Source: a virus (lineage: Duplodnaviria; Caudoviricetes). Taken from it: a DNA stretch of 61,298 bases. Below are positions 6,150-11,648 of the stretch, one piece after another; positions within the stretch are counted from its first letter, which is position 1; each line of letters starts with the position of its first letter. Location: positions 1 through 61,298 of the IMG/VR virus record IMGVR_UViG_3300049794_000017, one strand, 5' to 3'. A program made the translations under genes and the position numbers. The notes below the pieces were generated by a model. The model was not told the origin of the DNA. It saw only the letters and a list, made by a program, of their open reading frames with translations, and did no database searches.

Positions 6150-6253
6150 ATGTGCAACAGTTTCACGCTACAGAGTTAAAGTCAAGGGACCACCCATGAA
6201 ACTCCCATTCAGAAACGTTGCCTTTTACCCGCCAGATGGGTGATACTCACCGT
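6150..6253. promoter_or_regulatory. Divergent immunity switch (promoters plus an operator-like box)
   Basis: AT-richer gap; + strand TTGCCT(6219)-N17-GATACT(6242); - strand TTGACT at 6180-6185; imperfect palindrome TTCACGCTACAGAGTTAA at 6162-6179. Confidence 0.65.
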
Positions 6254-6763
6254 ATGGAGGACCAACCCCCCACCGCAGCGCCCGCGAAGCCGCTGCCCGA
6301 GTTCGTCGCCGAAGAGATCCTTGCCTGGACTGGCCGGCGCCGGATGACCATCGCCGAGCTGGCCCGCCGGCTCGGCCATCCCAACCAGATGCAGCTGCGG
6401 CGGCGCTTGAACCTCAAGACGCCGTTCGACACCGACGAGCTGTCCGCGATCGCCAAGATCCTGGAGATCAAGGTCACTGACCTGCTGCCGAAGGAGCCCG
6501 CCGCTGCGCCTACCGGGTCCAGGCCGCTGGACGTCTACCAGCTGGCGGAGATCTCCGCCTACCTGGGGATCCCCCCGGCCGATCTGCTACGCGGATCTAG
6601 TCCCTGGTATTCCCTGTTCGCACAAACACCTGATCACCCGAATGTGCGACCCCGGGCGCCCCGGCCGATCAGCGGACCTCCCGCTGACGGCGTCCGCCGG
6701 CCGCAGCGCAGGTCAGCCTCGATGCCCGCTGCCGCGATGACCGTCGGCGCCGGGAGGCTCTGA
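6254..6763 (+). CDS. Immunity repressor (XRE/BetR HTH)
   Basis: MTIAELARRLGHPNQMQLRRRL...PFDTDEL; directly upstream of the integrase. Confidence 0.75.
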   Translation: MEDQPPTAAPAKPLPEFVAEEILAWTGRRRMTIAELARRLGHPNQMQLRRRLNLKTPFDTDELSAIAKILEIKVTDLLPKEPAAAPTGSRPLDVYQLAEISAYLGIPPADLLRGSSPWYSLFAQTPDHPNVRPRAPRPISGPPADGVRRPQRRSASMPAAAMTVGAGRL

Positions 6764-6765
6764 CC

Positions 6766-7647
6766 ATGAGTGATCTGATCGACACACACCTGGACTGGTT
6801 GGGTGCCTCCGCGTCCCCGTACACCGTGCGCGACCGCCGCAGCATCCTGCGCCGCGTAGACCGCAAGCTGCCCTTCGGCCTGGAGCAGGCACTCGCCGCC
6901 GAGATCCAGAAGTGGCTGGCCGGCCCGAAACCGCCCGCGAAGCCCTGGTCGGCGAAGACCCGCCACGTGTACTGGCAGCACCTCACCGCGTTCTACCTCT
7001 GGGCGTGCGACCCGCTCACCGTCGACGACGAGCTGGACCTCAACCCGATGCTGGGGGTGCGCCGCCCACCCAACCCGCGGTCACTGCCCCGGCCCGTCAC
7101 CGCCGACCAGCTGGCCCTGATGCTGACCGCCCGCCGGCCCTACCGCACGTACGTGATGCTGGCCGCGTTGGCCGGGCTGCGGTGCATCGAGATCTCCCGC
7201 CTGCAGCGGGAGGACGTCACCGAGAAGACCATCACGATCTACGGCAAGGGCAACAAGCCGGCCGTCCTGGGAACCCACCCGCTGCTGTGGGCGGAGATCG
7301 AGCCGCTGCCGCCCGGGCCGATCGCTCTGCTCGCCAGCGGCCAGCAGGCCAGCCCGCAGGCGGTGTCCTCGCGCACCAGCGAGTACCTGCGCCGCATCGG
7401 TGTTCCGCCCGGCCGCACGCTGCACGGGGCCCGGCACTGGTACGCGACCACCCTGCTGGAGGGGGACGACGAGCACCCCGGTGCTGACCTGCGCACCGTC
7501 CAGGAAGCGCTGCGCCACGCCTCCCTGACCTCCACCCAGATCTACACCGAGGTCACCAACGCCCGCCGGGACGCGGCCATCACCGGCATCAAGCTCCCCG
7601 GCCAACGGGCCGGGAGGGAAACCCAGCCCAAGGAGCAACCACAATGA
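6766..7647 (+). CDS. int: Tyrosine integrase/recombinase
   Basis: Catalytic set: GLR(CIE), GKGNK, HGARH, LRHAS, TQIY. Confidence 0.9.
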   Translation: MSDLIDTHLDWLGASASPYTVRDRRSILRRVDRKLPFGLEQALAAEIQKWLAGPKPPAKPWSAKTRHVYWQHLTAFYLWACDPLTVDDELDLNPMLGVRRPPNPRSLPRPVTADQLALMLTARRPYRTYVMLAALAGLRCIEISRLQREDVTEKTITIYGKGNKPAVLGTHPLLWAEIEPLPPGPIALLASGQQASPQAVSSRTSEYLRRIGVPPGRTLHGARHWYATTLLEGDDEHPGADLRTVQEALRHASLTSTQIYTEVTNARRDAAITGIKLPGQRAGRETQPKEQPQ

Positions 7648-8165
7648 TCACCACCAAGATGGCCGCGGCTGTCGCGGTCGTCGTCGCCCTACTCGGCAGC
7701 GGCGGCCCACCGGCCTGCCAGCCGAAGGGCTCGTCCACCGCGGCGCCGGCCCCGGCGCAGCCCGTCGGCGCGGTGCCCGGCGGCAAGGACTGCGACACCC
7801 ACCCGTCGGCGCCGCGCGTCATCACCTTCGCCGGTAGGGCGGCCGTCGAAGGCTCGACGGAAAGCGTCTGCGACCTGCCGCCCCAGCAGCACCACGTCTC
7901 CATCTTCCTGGAGACCAAGTCGGCCGGCCAGTGGAGCGTGCAGCCCGACCCGTACGGCAAGACGTCCGGCAACTGCTACGACATCCCCGCCAACGGGATC
8001 CCGAAGACCTGCCAGTGGATCATCTCCCGCTGCCAGAACGGCCTGTGGCGCACGCGGGTGACCGTCTTCGGCTACGGGCCGCCGACGACCGGGCACCCCG
8101 GCGGGCTACCGTTCAACTTCGACGTGCCCGAGAAGCCCAGCGCACAACTGAACTGCAAGGCGTGA
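7644..8165 (+). CDS. Secreted or membrane-anchored Cys-containing protein (possible superinfection exclusion/lipoprotein)
   Basis: N-terminal hydrophobic signal AAAVAVVVALLG, Pro/Ala linker, paired Cys. Confidence 0.65.
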   Translation: MITTKMAAAVAVVVALLGSGGPPACQPKGSSTAAPAPAQPVGAVPGGKDCDTHPSAPRVITFAGRAAVEGSTESVCDLPPQQHHVSIFLETKSAGQWSVQPDPYGKTSGNCYDIPANGIPKTCQWIISRCQNGLWRTRVTVFGYGPPTTGHPGGLPFNFDVPEKPSAQLNCKA

Positions 8166-8177
8166 GGGGGACCTGAG

Positions 8178-8459
8178 ATGAGCCACTGGGCGATCGACGT
8201 TCGTTACCCCGGGGTGCCTGACAGCAACTTCCGGTCGGTCCTCAACGAGGACCGGGACACCATCGCCGACCTCGGGTCGATGACGGTCGGCGGACACCGG
8301 ACCACCCTGCACATGCACGTCGAGGCGGATAACGCGCACGCCGCGCTGGAGGCCGGCATCCATGCCGCTGACATCATCGCGGCGAACCTGGGGCTGTCCG
8401 TCGAGCATGCCGCCGCGGCCACGGAACTGCCGGAAACCGGGACCAGCGAACCAGTCTGA
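8178..8459 (+). CDS. Hypothetical protein
   Basis: GAGGGG RBS; ferredoxin-like beta/alpha pattern. Confidence 0.7.
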   Translation: MSHWAIDVRYPGVPDSNFRSVLNEDRDTIADLGSMTVGGHRTTLHMHVEADNAHAALEAGIHAADIIAANLGLSVEHAAAATELPETGTSEPV

Positions 8460-8467
8460 GGACGAGG

Positions 8468-8508
8468 GAACCGCGCCGAGCATCGGGGTATGACGCTCGG
8501 CGCGGTTC
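8468..8508 (+). terminator. GC-rich hairpin, probable terminator
   Basis: GAACCGCGCCGAGC ... GCTCGGCGCGGTTC inverted repeat after the stop. Confidence 0.7.
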
Positions 8509-8528
8509 GTCTTCAGCGAGACGCGATC

Positions 8529-8572
8529 TTCACGCCCGAGAGTGAAAATCTCACGCTACTGCGTGCTAGTGT
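8529..8572 (+). promoter_or_regulatory. Promoter with two operator-like boxes upstream of the RAMP-like gene
   Basis: TTCACGCCCGAGAGTGAA (8529-8546) and CTCACGCTACTGCGTGCT (8550-8567); TGcTAGTGT extended -10-like at 8564-8572. Confidence 0.55.
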
Positions 8573-8650
8573 GGCCGGCATCCGAGCGGGACCCGGTGAT
8601 GTGACGATCAACCGGGATCCCTGAGCACCGACGCCTTAGAGGAGGCACGG

Positions 8651-9277
8651 ATGCCTAAGACCGATGCTAGTGGCCAGACTCCCACTGTTCACCTACGCAG
8701 GCTGGAGTCCGTCGAACTAGCCGTTGATCTCGTGGGGACAACCCCGCTGATCCCGCACCGCTGGTCGCAAAAGGCGATCGCCATGATGCAGGTCAAGCAG
8801 TCCCAGCCGGGGGTACGGGCCAAGCGAGAAGCCAAGGACCCTGAGCAGGAGGCGTATGACTCCTGCTACTGGCTGAAGGATGAGGCCGGGGAGGACGTGC
8901 CGGCGATGCCGGCCACCGCGTTCAAAGCCGCGATGGTCGGCGCCTGCCGCTTCTTCGAGGGGCTCACGATGACTGCCGCCAAGCAGATCTTCTACGTGGT
9001 CGGTGAGGGCCCCGATCAGCTCGTGCGGATCTCCGGTGACATGACGATGCGCACTGATACTCCGCGCAACGCCACCGGGGTGGCCGACCTGCGGTACCGC
9101 AACGCGTTCTTCCCGTGGTCGACGACGCTGACGGTGCGGTTCCTACCCGGAATCCTCACCCCTGACAGCGTTATCGCCCTACTCGACGCCGCGGGCCGCG
9201 GAGGGGTCGGTGACTGGCGGCCCAGTGCGCCGCGGTCCGCCACCGGCACCTATGGGCAGTGGACGGTGCCGGGGTGA
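8651..9277 (+). CDS. Stand-alone RAMP/Cas7-like protein (Vipr-like candidate RNA-guided effector)
   Basis: GAGGAGG RBS; RAMP-like motifs LVGTTPLI (beta1), PAMPATAFKAAM (cf. PxIPGSSLKG), C-terminal Gly loop GGVGDWRP...GTYG; upstream of the GGYNN array. Confidence 0.75.
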   Translation: MPKTDASGQTPTVHLRRLESVELAVDLVGTTPLIPHRWSQKAIAMMQVKQSQPGVRAKREAKDPEQEAYDSCYWLKDEAGEDVPAMPATAFKAAMVGACRFFEGLTMTAAKQIFYVVGEGPDQLVRISGDMTMRTDTPRNATGVADLRYRNAFFPWSTTLTVRFLPGILTPDSVIALLDAAGRGGVGDWRPSAPRSATGTYGQWTVPG

Positions 9278-9960
9278 CACTCAAGACGCTGCCGCTGGCC
9301 GACCTCGTGGAGGACTACGACGTCTACCCCCGCCACGCCCTGGATACCGGGCATGTGCGGAAACTTGAGGAGGCGCTGCGATCCGGCAACGCACTTCCGC
9401 CCATCGTCGTGGCACGCAAGGGGAACCGGATCGTCGACGGCTTCCACCGCAAACGCGCCTACATCAAGGTCCTCGGTCCCACCGGGCAGGTGGAGGTCGA
9501 CGTACGCGGCTATGCATCCGAGGTCGAGCTGGTGCGCGACGCCATCACGATGAACGCGGCGCACGGGCGCGGACTCGACGAGCAGGACCGCACCAAGGGC
9601 GCGTTGATGCTACGACGTCTGGGGGTGGAGACCGCTGATATCGCGGTGGTCCTACACACCACCCCGGAACGTATCGACAAGATCCTGGTCCGGGTGGTGG
9701 AAGTCCGCGACGAATACGGGACCCACGTTGAGCCGGCCAAGCCGGTGGTCCGCCGGTTCGGGACGCCCCGCACGTTGAGTCCGCAGCAGCAGCAGGTGCA
9801 CCGCTCGTCGTCGGGATGGCGCCCGGCGCAGACGGTGACGCAGTTGACCCGGGAGATCGAGTCGGGGGTGCTCGACGTGACAGCGGAGGGCATGCGGGAG
9901 CGGTTGTGGCGGCTGGCTGAGGTCATCACCGCGACTGTTGGGACGCGACCGGGAACCTAG
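9274..9960 (+). CDS. ParB/Srx N-terminal domain protein with HTH
   Basis: GTG overlaps the TGA of the RAMP-like gene; YPRHALD...LPPIVV...IVDGFHRKRA; NAAHGRGL; HTH-like ETADIAVVLHTTPERIDKIL. Confidence 0.8.
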   Translation: MTLKTLPLADLVEDYDVYPRHALDTGHVRKLEEALRSGNALPPIVVARKGNRIVDGFHRKRAYIKVLGPTGQVEVDVRGYASEVELVRDAITMNAAHGRGLDEQDRTKGALMLRRLGVETADIAVVLHTTPERIDKILVRVVEVRDEYGTHVEPAKPVVRRFGTPRTLSPQQQQVHRSSSGWRPAQTVTQLTREIESGVLDVTAEGMRERLWRLAEVITATVGTRPGT

Positions 9961-9965
9961 GCTGC

Positions 9966-10318
9966 GGCGCGGCAGGCGTGGCGGGGCTGGGCGCGGCTTG
10001 GCAGGGCAGGGCGTGGCAGGTTTGGCGCGGCAGGGCTCGGCAGGCAGGGCATGGCTTGGCAGGGCATGGCGCGGCTCGGCTCGGCGAGGCAGGCGTGGAC
10101 CGGCGGGGTTCGGCGTGGCGTGGCTGGGCCCGGCGAGGCCGGGACTGGCGTGGCAGGCTCGGCGCGGCCTGGCATGGCAAGGCTGGGCGGGGCGCGGCTT
10201 GGCGGGCATGGCCCGGTGTGGACTGGCGTGGTTGGGCGCGGCACGGCAGGCGTGGTTGGGCGCGGCGTGGCAAGGCATGGCGCGGCGTGGCGCGGCGTGG
10301 CAAGGCAAGGCAAGGCGG
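9966..10318 (+). ncRNA. GGYNN pentamer array (candidate guide-RNA locus)
   Basis: Parses exactly into 65 GGnNN pentamers (57 GGC, 5 GGT, 3 GGA) plus seven 4-mers (GGCA x6, GGCG x1); starts 5 nt after the ParB stop. Confidence 0.8.
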
Positions 10319-10320
10319 GA

Positions 10321-10362
10321 GATGAGACCGGGGGGGAAGATGAGAACCTCCCGGTCTTCATC
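10321..10362. terminator. Hairpin closing the array, between convergent units
   Basis: GATGAGACCGGGGG ... CTCCCGGTCTTCATC. Confidence 0.65.
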
Positions 10363-10720
10363 GGCGAAGTATCCGCACGATCTCCTCGGTGCTCAATCCT
10401 GAGTCGATCAAGTCGCTGATCTGACGCACCCGCTGCGCTCTCGCCGGAGTGCGGACCGTGACCCGGCCACCACCGGCAAGCTCCACACCGGGCTCGGTAC
10501 TGTGCCCGGCCCTGGTCGTAGTCACGATCTTCTGACATTGCCCCGACTGGTACATCGCGACGATGCTGGGCCAGGACCGCTCCCCGACGCCCAGCGCCAG
10601 CACCCGGTAGCCACGCTGATCGCAATGCAACAACGTCCGACTCATCTCCAGCCGCAGATCGTGTCCGGGTATGAAGATCGCCGCTGGTGTTGCCCCCCCG
10701 GGCCGTTGATGATCCGTCAT
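10358..10720 (-). CDS. Hypothetical protein (weak resolvase-N-like fold)
   Basis: HCDQRGYRVL...SIVAMYQSG...KIV pattern; C-terminal helical DSGLSTEEIVR. Confidence 0.55.
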   Translation of the reverse strand: MTDHQRPGGATPAAIFIPGHDLRLEMSRTLLHCDQRGYRVLALGVGERSWPSIVAMYQSGQCQKIVTTTRAGHSTEPGVELAGGGRVTVRTPARAQRVRQISDLIDSGLSTEEIVRILRR

Positions 10721-10886
10721 CTCCGCACTGTAAGCACGCGGTCGCGTGGTGTCACCGGGCTCGGGAGCACGGCACCTGACGCGATATGGGGGTTCACCCC
10801 TACTGACCACTACCGGTCAGCGTTACCCTCCGGGGAATAAAACACCCGCCCCATGGGTAACACTTGCTGGAGGAGGAGCGATAGAC

Positions 10887-11273
10887 ATGACGAGCACGCC
10901 AATCTCTGCCCACGGCAAGGACGGCCTCGTAACGTTCGACGGGCAAACCCTGACCATCACCCGCAAACACCTGCGGGATCTGCTCGTCGGGATCCTGCGC
11001 AGCAGCTTCCGCAGCGGGGTGCGGCTGACCATCGAGCAGATCGCCGACGTGCGACTGGGTAAGGGCCGCATGGTGCTGGTCGCGCCCGGCGCGATCCGCC
11101 GCACCGGGAAGCCGGCGCAGGCCGCCGACCTGGACTACCCGCTGACGGTTCGGTTCGGCAAGCCGGCGGCCGCCGAGTTCGCGGCGCTGCGTGACGCGGT
11201 GCTGGCCGCCCGACCCGCGCCCCGCCCGCTGCACACCCCGCCCGCCGGATACCCCGGAGGTCGACCGCTGTGA
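10887..11273 (+). CDS. DUF4429/PH-like domain protein
   Basis: GGAGGAGG RBS; AHGKDGLVTFDGQTLTITRK...LTIEQIADV. Confidence 0.7.
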   Translation: MTSTPISAHGKDGLVTFDGQTLTITRKHLRDLLVGILRSSFRSGVRLTIEQIADVRLGKGRMVLVAPGAIRRTGKPAQAADLDYPLTVRFGKPAAAEFAALRDAVLAARPAPRPLHTPPAGYPGGRPL

Positions 11274-11374
11274 GCGAGACCGTCGAGGTGATCGTCTACG
11301 AAGTGATCCGGCCGGACGGGACGGTGCTGTATCAGCTTGTCGTCCCGAGCGGGAGGCCTGCCCATGCCGCGTAG
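11270..11374 (+). CDS. Small 34-aa protein
   Basis: GTGA-coupled; VSETVEVIVYEVIRPDGTVLYQLVVP...; below the ORF-track cutoff. Confidence 0.5.
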   Translation: MSETVEVIVYEVIRPDGTVLYQLVVPSGRPAHAA

Positions 11375-11594
11375 CGCACCGATCCCGCCCGCCGAATACG
11401 ACGGCGAACACCTGGACACCGACGAGAAGCTGGAGGCCGAGGGCTGGGCCGCAGGCCTAGACGTGTGGGAGCAGGTCGGCAAGGCGTACGGCAACTACCT
11501 CGGTGACGACACCTTGGCCAACGCCCAGCTGTGGTCGCTGCGCCAGGCCATCCGCGCCGAACTGCGCGCCGAACTGCTCGACAAGGGAGCCTGA
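11364..11594 (+). CDS. Hypothetical protein
   Basis: GGAGG RBS; acidic protein. Confidence 0.65.
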   Translation: MPRSAPIPPAEYDGEHLDTDEKLEAEGWAAGLDVWEQVGKAYGNYLGDDTLANAQLWSLRQAIRAELRAELLDKGA

Positions 11595-11604
11595 CCCCCA
11601 GACA

Positions 11605-11648
11605 GTTCGGCCCTCGCACCCGAGGGGGGTGGGTGCGAGGGCCGAACC
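11605..11648. terminator. Bidirectional terminator hairpin
   Basis: GTTCGGCCCTCGCACCC ... GGGTGCGAGGGCCGAAC between convergent genes. Confidence 0.8.

Follow-up and report, generated by a model that had tools for sequence, protein, structure and literature searches.

The tract at positions 9960-10318 of the window, the name used here for the whole 61,298-nt stretch of DNA that was analysed, is very probably a staggered vrRNA array of a VIPR (Viral Interference Programmable Repeat) system in a temperate actinophage-like genome, with GGCA units separating the guides. VIPR systems are the subject of bioRxiv preprints dated April to October 2026. As described in the text of one of these, the Vipr protein is a minimal RAMP composed of an RRM core, a G-loop, and a thumb, which polymerises on vrRNA with one protomer per repeat, and the vrRNA consists of 9-16 GGY/NN pentamers (10.64898/2026.04.26.720920). 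In the preprints' account of the Escherichia coli phage SUSP1, Vipr holds each GGY while leaving the two variable bases accessible. These NN form pairs with double-stranded DNA in which every third target base is skipped (the 1-nt skip rule), and genes of competing mobile elements, both phages and satellites, are silenced as a result. VIPR has been proposed to be older than CRISPR. Seven VIPR types (I-VII) are distinguished, and their varied array architectures include "staggered arrays with overlapping vrRNAs" (10.64898/2026.04.26.720920). According to the legend of Fig. S18 of the same preprint, neighboring vrRNAs of staggered arrays overlap by 1 nt (10.64898/2026.04.26.720920). VIPR and its staggered architecture are already described in the preprints, and the window locus adds another member, unannotated until now and originating from a high-GC temperate phage. 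The preprint supplements may already contain the window-type architecture, the ParB-like accessory gene, or the mycobacteriophages discussed below. The original prediction, made from the letters of the tract, had proposed that the NN dinucleotides carry the information, that targets are read as NN-x-NN-x, and that a filament assembles on the repeats, all of which matches the published VIPR mechanism. Its sequence-only reasoning was largely right, and the system and architecture that it approached were already in the preprints.

The window is the genome of a whole temperate siphovirus-like phage with a GC content of ~68%, and its gene set includes a terminase, portal, capsid, tape measure, integrase, and repressor. 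No close relative was found in the phage collection by megablast of positions 1-25000 or by tblastn of the endolysin-like protein. The capsid protein has 28% sequence identity to capsid proteins of Mycobacterium phages. The region around the array is organized as follows:

6218-6763, + strand, repressor-like gene
6766-7647, + strand, integrase gene
7644-8165, + strand, open reading frame
8651-9277, + strand, vipr gene, encoding a predicted RAMP-family, Cas7/Csm3-like guide-binding protein
9259-9960, + strand, ParB/Noc/KorB-like gene, a candidate vap accessory, with a stop codon that includes the first G of the array
9960-10318, + strand, GGCNN-type array, at the 3' end of the + strand unit formed by vipr, the parB-like gene, and the array
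10321-10362, + strand, terminator-like hairpin closing the vipr-parB-array unit, located between convergent genes
10358-10810, - strand, open reading frame convergent with the array

The array begins 683 nt downstream of vipr, on the same strand. The hairpin at 10321-10362 has an RNA folding energy of -28.9 kcal/mol (z = -2.75), and was missed by a simple terminator scan because it is not followed by a T run. A strong hairpin is also located 3' of the last array in the related loci L156, L171, and L173, and is absent from this position in L158, L159, L168, L169, and L167. The VIPR unit adjoins the repressor and integrase genes, and thus would fit a function in the exclusion of rival phages from a lysogen.

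The VIPR identity of the locus was reached through a profile match to the PDB and then through the literature on the name of the matching protein. Profile A1 of the window protein family matches PDB entry 36pp_D, annotated as "SUSP1 Vipr protein", with E = 4.9e-10; the similarity between the single sequences of the window protein and SUSP1 Vipr is weak (E = 0.012). The AF2 model of the 8651-9277 product has a pLDDT of 88.6, and its top Foldseek matches are Csm3/Cas7-type RAMP subunits, with E values down to 7.7e-07. The protein matches phrog_4652, a group of unknown function, and belongs to a family of at least 971 members, all of them without a name. The start codon of the gene is uncertain, and the database gene call gives a protein of 181 amino acids.

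In SUSP1 Vipr, as the preprint on its structure describes it, residues H17, R138, D177, W178, and R179 hold the GGY, and K33 contacts the backbone of the target strand (10.64898/2026.04.26.720927). In the order H17, R138, D177, W178, R179, and K33, these residues align to H36, R150, D188, W189, R190, and K41 of the window protein. The G-loop sequence GVGDWRP of the window protein is aligned with D177, W178, and R179 of SUSP1, and the thumb residue Arg150 with R138. The N-terminal part of the pairwise alignment, which contains H17 and K33, is weak, and the pairing of H36 with H17 comes from a weak HMMER segment. All six residues are invariant in alignment A2 of the family, and three of them, K41, R150, and R190, in A1 as well. 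The Vipr profile match, the predicted RAMP fold, and the aligned GGY-holding residues together identify the tract as a putative vrRNA array and 8651-9277 as its vipr gene, encoding a Vipr homologue of the RAMP family.

Arrays of this kind are widespread among viruses. A pattern scan located (GGCNN)8GGC in viral contigs at 137 loci or more; their GC contents span 39-73%, their NN are variable, and many of them contain several arrays. Searched by tblastn, the window Vipr is present in 34 of the 137 loci listed. Profile A1 detects Vipr in 58 of the 80 loci with 2-kb flanks and in 13 of the 57 loci with 300-bp flanks. In genome contigs, five related loci were found with alignment A2 as the query and none with the single protein.

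The array is an uninterrupted GG-led run of 73 GGCNN-type units on the + strand. We parsed it by a greedy procedure and by a Viterbi procedure allowing 4-, 5-, and 6-nt units, and the two parses agree. The tract had been proposed to be split by the 4-mers GGCA at 9971, 10015, 10039, 10088, 10152, and 10245 and GGCG at 10201 into blocks of 8, 4, 9, 12, 9, 8, and 14 pentamers, preceded by one leading unit. Both parses return the same 4-mers and the same blocks, and the seven NN strings given for the blocks were confirmed letter for letter against the window. An additional GGCG is located at 10314, at the very end of the array. The parsed array has the following parts, all on the + strand:

9960-9974, array leader, containing the 6-mer GGCTGC, GGCGC at 9966, and the first GGCA junction (parse)
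9975-10018, block B1, 8 units and a GGCA junction, putative vrRNA 1 (both parses)
10019-10042, block B2, 4 units and a GGCA junction, probably a remnant, too short for a guide (both parses)
10043-10091, block B3, 9 units and a GGCA junction, putative vrRNA (both parses)
10092-10155, block B4, 12 units and a GGCA junction, putative vrRNA (both parses)
10156-10204, block B5, 9 units and an atypical GGCG junction (parse)
10205-10248, block B6, 8 units and a GGCA junction, putative vrRNA (both parses)
10249-10318, block B7, 14 units, ending in (GGCAA)3 GGCGG (parse)

The 6-mer starts at 9960 with a G that also completes the TAG stop codon of the upstream gene. In block B4, GGA or GGT replaces GGC in three units. 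The first 18 nt of B7 duplicate positions 10225-10242 of B6. B7 also has a partial periodicity of 10 nt. The motif (GGCNN)4GGC has 27 matches in the window, all of them on the + strand within 9975-10316, compared with a chance expectation of 0.00 from 100 dinucleotide-preserving shuffles; GGCNNGGCAGGCNNGGC has 3 matches compared with 0.01 expected. No second array of the GGCNN kind is present elsewhere in the 61-kb genome. An Rfam search of positions 9000-11500 at E <= 1 returned no match, including no ribozyme, and there is no conserved spacer between the blocks. Units with GGA, of which there are several in the window, depart from the GGY consensus.

The 64 block units contain 14 distinct NN. 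Neighboring NN were said to mostly differ, and they do: they are equal in 5 of the 57 within-block adjacencies, compared with 5.4 +/- 2.2 for shuffled NN, and two of the five equal pairs belong to the AA AA AA run of B7. Since the equality of adjacent NN is at the level of the shuffles, the tract is not a slippage microsatellite. The interpretation of B7 as an "expanding or unprogrammed end" was half right, as its (GGCAA)3 terminus is a feature of 3' ends across the family. Among 224 arrays, 25 end in GGCAAGGCAA and one starts with it, and this bias towards array ends makes the (GGCAA)3 end of the window array a family trait.

The GGCA 4-mers have the form that is expected of overlapping guides. 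If the final unit of one guide is GGCAG, and its last G is at the same time the first G of the next GGC, the 1-nt overlap produces exactly a GGCA 4-mer. Every GGCA of the window directly precedes the GG of the next unit, in agreement with the staggered arrays of the Fig. S18 legend. The 4-mers are also specific: in 240 distinct arrays, 73 of the 76 4-mers are GGCA and two are GGCG, compared with ~36% GGCA if a G were lost from any G-run, as calculated from the frequencies of GGCAG, GGCGG, GGCTG, and GGCCG units. The junction units in the Viterbi parses are GGCA (92), GGCG (10), and CGCA (9). Non-empty internal blocks (n = 79) have a mode of 9 units; 59 of them contain 7-16 units, 17 contain 1-6, and three contain more than 16. 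Arrays that have no junction are mostly 9-15 units long. The last unit of in-phase runs is GGCAG in 26% and GGCAA in 19% of cases, compared with 7% and 11%, respectively, at internal positions. Separators are constant within a lineage and differ between lineages at the same spacing, with CGCA, GGCT, and the 9-nt GGCGTTCAR (locus L007) as variants.

Comparison of related phages shows how the arrays change. Eight cluster-F-type mycobacteriophages encode a Vipr that is 57.7% identical to that of the window, and they form two groups, each with identical DNA on the flanks of the arrays. Their blocks, lettered by content, are arranged in the following orders:

Brocalys and Pippy, A-B-C-D-E
Donkeykong, A-B-C-F-G-D-E
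Saal, H-B-I-J-E
SwagPigglett, H-B-I-K-E
ByChance, H-B-K-E
Quico and Florinda, L-M-N-O-E

All differences between these arrays involve whole blocks, with GGCA at the borders of each gain or loss. Block C consists of two units, and B2 of the window may be likened to it. The specificity of the junctions, the size of the blocks, the composition of their ends, the lineage-specific separators, and the cassette turnover together make the separation of guides by GGCA the best reading, and GGCA units most likely mark the end of one guide and the start of the next. The proposal that the 4-mers are guide separators is thus partly supported: GGCA specificity, guide-sized blocks, and cassette turnover agree with it, and the GGCG at 10201 and the 4-unit B2 do not match it. 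These two features and B7 are the exceptions to the pattern in the window. Four of its seven blocks are within the published range of 9-16 units; B1 and B6, with 8 units, come to 9 when the junction unit is included, and B2 is outside the range. The comparative data provide independent support, derived from genomes alone, for an array architecture for which the preprint text reports no small-RNA confirmation. The phages of Mycobacterium smegmatis offer a tractable model for the study of VIPR processing and targeting.

The product of the 9259-9960 gene matches phrog_1033, a ParB-like group, with E = 6e-10. It is composed of a ParB/Srx N-domain followed by helices (AF2 pLDDT 77), and the top Foldseek matches of the model are Noc, ParB with CDP or CTPgS, the pNOB8 ParB-N domain, and KorB. 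The motif DGFHRxRA is invariant in seven homologues. A parB-like gene also follows vipr in loci L156, L158, L159, L168, and L173, where the arrays are located before or after it. By tblastn, the gene is found in 3 of the 137 array loci listed, and it is present in 6 of the 35 loci formed by the window and the 34 Vipr-bearing loci. VIPR operons include an accessory (vap) gene with a DNA-interacting domain, of which vap1-6 have been published, and the 9259-9960 gene is a candidate of this kind; according to the preprint text, vap genes are said to act on DNA (10.64898/2026.04.26.720920). The ParB/KorB-like protein is probably a DNA-acting accessory factor. The string "parb" has no occurrence in the main text of that preprint, and its supplementary tables may list such a gene (10.64898/2026.04.26.720920).

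We hypothesize that vipr, the parB-like gene, and the array are transcribed as one + strand unit, which would end at the 10321-10362 hairpin. Each guide would end in GGCA, and the first G of the next guide would occupy the place of the fifth base, shifting the 5-nt register by one. The shift may stop one Vipr filament and start the next, and it probably exposes the junction to cleavage. The window array would provide approximately five or six usable guides, namely B1, B3, B4, B5, B6, and the first part of B7, with B2 as a remnant and (GGCAA)n as a common 3' end. We speculate that B1, B3-B6, and the part of B7 are guides against rival phages of an actinobacterial host.

A further proposal is tentative and may well prove wrong: the register shift could itself be the punctuation of the array, dispensing with a tail, ribozyme, or Cas6, and could be combined with a ParB/KorB-like protein acting as a possibly CTP-dependent clamp at VIPR-bound sites. 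The Vipr filament would then determine how long each guide is and where it stops, cutting would take place at the exposed junction, and arrays would evolve by gain and loss of cassettes at the junctions. The ParB/KorB-like protein would be recruited to VIPR-bound sites, where it may spread or lock the silencing.

The tract could be a VIPR array, but with 4-mers that are tolerated slippage or degeneracy. Vipr would then load onto all of the tract or any part of it, and something else, for example a protein ruler or host RNases, would define the guide ends. The degenerate GGA and GGT units, the one GGCG junction, and the 4-unit block of the window are consistent with such tolerance. It also agrees with the text of the preprint, in which small-RNA sequencing confirmed only the ribozyme-interspersed and single-vrRNA architectures, staggered processing having no experimental confirmation there (10.64898/2026.04.26.720920). 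We consider slippage unlikely because it does not account for GGCA making up 73 of 76 4-mers compared with the ~36% expected, for blocks of guide size, for one type of separator per lineage, or for the gain and loss of whole blocks exactly at GGCA.

The remaining explanations place the function of the tract outside a guide RNA. The array is located directly 3' of the ParB/Noc/KorB-like gene, a position that might suggest a duplex DNA site bound by the neighboring protein, such as a centromere-like or parS-like repeat or an iteron array. Partition sites often adjoin parB, and a ParA partner is usual. A DNA site is, however, very improbable: the parB-like gene accompanies only 3 of the 137 listed loci and 6 of 35 when the window and Vipr-bearing loci are considered, Vipr is present in 58 of the 80 well-flanked loci, and the window ORF scans show no parA gene beside the array. 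Moreover, vipr is on the G-rich strand of the array in all 71 of 71 loci, a strand rule that would be predicted of an RNA but not of a double-stranded site. That the tract is a low-complexity coding sequence, with open reading frames such as 9938-10402 on the + strand and 9652-10308 on the - strand, or a functionless degenerate microsatellite, is hardly credible. All six frames are nearly open across the tract, and depositors have annotated coding sequences over equivalent arrays, as in Donkeykong gene 48 and at the 5' ends of Brocalys gene 45 and Saal gene 51. The open frames result from the GGCNN composition, in which only NN = TA makes a stop. Related arrays often contain GGCTA, which gives TAG (125 of 3791 units), and each 4-mer changes the reading frame. 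The similarity of adjacent NN does not exceed that of shuffles, and the element is conserved beside Vipr across contigs of 39-73% GC. The staggered vrRNA array remains the reading that we prefer, and SEA-PHAGES genomes carry coding sequences mis-annotated over such arrays.

Several other interpretations of the tract were set aside before the VIPR identification: RNA binding by a TRAP-like ring, a G-quadruplex or i-motif DNA, a Rho rut site on the C-rich strand, Chi-like arrays, a terminase pac site, and the coding sequence of a pentapeptide-repeat protein. TRAP-binding RNA contains (G/U)AG triplets separated by spacers of 2-3 nt, each repeat being bound by one subunit of an oligomeric protein. 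It thereby resembles the window array in the periodicity of a triplet and a 2-nt spacer, but TRAP is a closed 11-mer ring that functions in attenuation, and the spacers hold no targeting information. The protein of TIGR-Tas systems is Tas, which has a Nop domain. TIGR-Tas systems, as presented in the preprint text (10.64898/2026.10.21.760802), share with the window tandem guide arrays that are associated with phages and built of short periodic units, but their period is 18 nt, compared with 5 nt in the window, where the protein is a RAMP.

The Cas7/Csm3 filaments of class 1 CRISPR systems have in common with VIPR the RAMP fold, the helical filament on a guide RNA, and the thumb that breaks the pairing at periodic intervals. 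The window differs from class 1 CRISPR in that it has no repeat-spacer units of 60-79 nt, no cas1 or cas2, and no contiguous spacer, the information being located in two of every five nucleotides. A CRISPR array, in which direct repeats of ~23-50 nt alternate with spacers, was rejected on the 5-nt period and on the 22 window open reading frames scanned, among which there is no cas gene, apart from the RAMP-fold Vipr. The Type II VIPR of SUSP1 (PDB 36pp) has a homologous protein, including the DWR of the G-loop and the thumb arginine, and the same kind of repeat. The vrRNAs of SUSP1 are described in the preprint text as separate ~100-nt RNAs that all carry an invariant tail with a pseudoknot at the 3' end (10.64898/2026.04.26.720927); the window, in contrast, has no tail between guides, only 4-nt junctions, and a single hairpin after the last block. 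The closest known counterparts are the staggered VIPR arrays, in which, as in the window, a Vipr RAMP is encoded beside GGY/NN pentamers, on the same strand, in a phage or prophage. The difference is the ParB-like accessory of the window, which is not named in the main text of the preprint.

The gapped matching that had been suggested as a check of the blocks, carried out here mostly as exact matches, returned no target of the window blocks above controls. Searched with skips of 0-3 against 0.43 Mb of fetched loci and the window itself, the blocks gave nothing above shuffles, so there is no self-target in this local scan. Exact NNx patterns of B4, B5, and units 1-10 of B7 have no match in viral contigs; B3 has three matches, in unrelated contigs of 40-45% GC, and B6 has eight, in contigs of 33-60% GC. 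In metagenome contigs, B4 has no exact match, and B1 plus AG has 15, six of which are in one conserved argininosuccinate-lyase-like gene (47-52% GC) and are read as chance matches to a conserved motif. With up to three mismatches allowed, B4 has 3 matches in 401 genomes of Mycobacteriaceae, the family of Mycobacterium szulgai, compared with 14 for the backwards control. An apparent excess of 3-mismatch matches in the shuffled-guide comparison was rejected, as it vanishes when the B4 matches selected from these genomes are removed. The target calls of the preprint accept agreement at 80% of the NN, according to its text.

No match of the window blocks to 48 distinct vipr genes was above shuffles, and no target was found for the mycobacteriophage blocks D and B. 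A set of 365 guides compared with 0.95 Mb of sequence shows no general excess at skip 1 relative to the other skips (0, 2, and 3) or to reversed guides. One clear case of the skip rule nevertheless appears to be present in the clade of the window. In a prophage of M. szulgai (L140), a 12-unit guide agrees with the vipr gene of L169 at all of its first 20 positions and at 22 of the 24 overall. The NNx pattern of the match falls on codons, and of 840 shuffled guides compared, none has two or fewer mismatches.

The 12-unit guide RNA (vrRNA) at L140:2809-2868 is encoded by a Mycobacterium szulgai prophage. At 22 of 24 NN positions it agrees with a vipr gene carried by a different viral contig (L169:7830-7864), and the 20 opening positions are matched without exception (20/20). 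The target site encodes the peptide EGDDQLVPIVGD, and the base skipped by the guide is the third position of the codon. The guide matches the vipr gene of the window at 17/24 NN positions and that of its own prophage at 16/24 only. The predicted guide looks like a natural anti-VIPR guide.

Patterns of the NNx type, with two paired bases and a skipped third, can also pick up conserved coding sequence. The pattern of window block B1 plus AG matches six metagenome contigs of 47-52% GC (L200, L205, L207, L208, L209, and L212) at approximately positions 601-626. In each case the site lies in an argininosuccinate-lyase-like gene and corresponds to its conserved LTLLKAQPT motif, where the skipped bases vary in the manner of third codon positions. 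We judged this candidate B1 target to be a chance match to a conserved motif.

The closing units of block B6 in the window array (10225-10242; GGCGT GGTTG GGCGC GGC) recur 24 nt further on, at 10249-10266, where they form the start of B7. The duplication takes in the junction, which suggests that arrays lengthen when block-sized pieces slip or recombine unequally. Arrays of interest at other loci are:

L007:1995-2353, array with blocks of 6-13 units, on the same contig as L157
L171:7644-8495, very long staggered array (consecutive vrRNAs overlapping by 1 nt) of 19 blocks and 18 GGCA junctions
L154:2129-2320, array of Gordonia phage Ecliptus, downstream of a Vipr homologue
L155:2117-2322, array of Gordonia phage Pipp, downstream of a Vipr homologue

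In the L007 array, a constant 9-nt GGCGTTCA(G/A/C) stands between the blocks in place of GGCA; the punctuation is different, with the spacing unchanged. The Vipr encoded downstream of this array is 59% identical to that of the window. The L171 array lies downstream of a Vipr homologue with 47% identity. The viral contig L173 carries GGCNN arrays at 8016-9831 (- strand) and 10642-11647 (+ strand), which flank the pair of vipr and ParB-like genes. This arrangement may represent either two VIPR units or a set of arrays that is inverted.

The VIPR unit of the window is located in a lysogeny module, and is directly preceded by:

6218-8165, repressor-like gene (phrog_4583), tyrosine integrase (phrog_1), then an unassigned ORF

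The 485 nt immediately before vipr (8166-8650) contain no long ORF and no repeats. On the other side of the unit, the ORFs at 10358-10810 (- strand) and 10746-11273 (+ strand) have no Pfam or PHROG family match. The former is convergent with the array, and the two share a hairpin at 10321-10362.

The VIPR system of Ecliptus is positioned within the tail-gene region, adjoining the tape measure gene. The Vipr homologues of Ecliptus and Pipp show 38-40% identity, and their arrays contain numerous GGT units and GGCA junctions.

In mycobacteriophages, hypothetical coding sequences have been deposited across vrRNA arrays, for example gene 48 of Donkeykong (L152:680-1066), and deposited genes start inside arrays at L138:3626 (gene 45), L150:1033 (gene 51), and L153:1033 (gene 40). 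The annotated starts of these three vipr homologues are approximately 170 nt upstream of the first homologous sequence. Both the coding sequences over arrays and the vipr starts within them are probably annotation artefacts, likely arising because the GGCNN composition is stop-poor.
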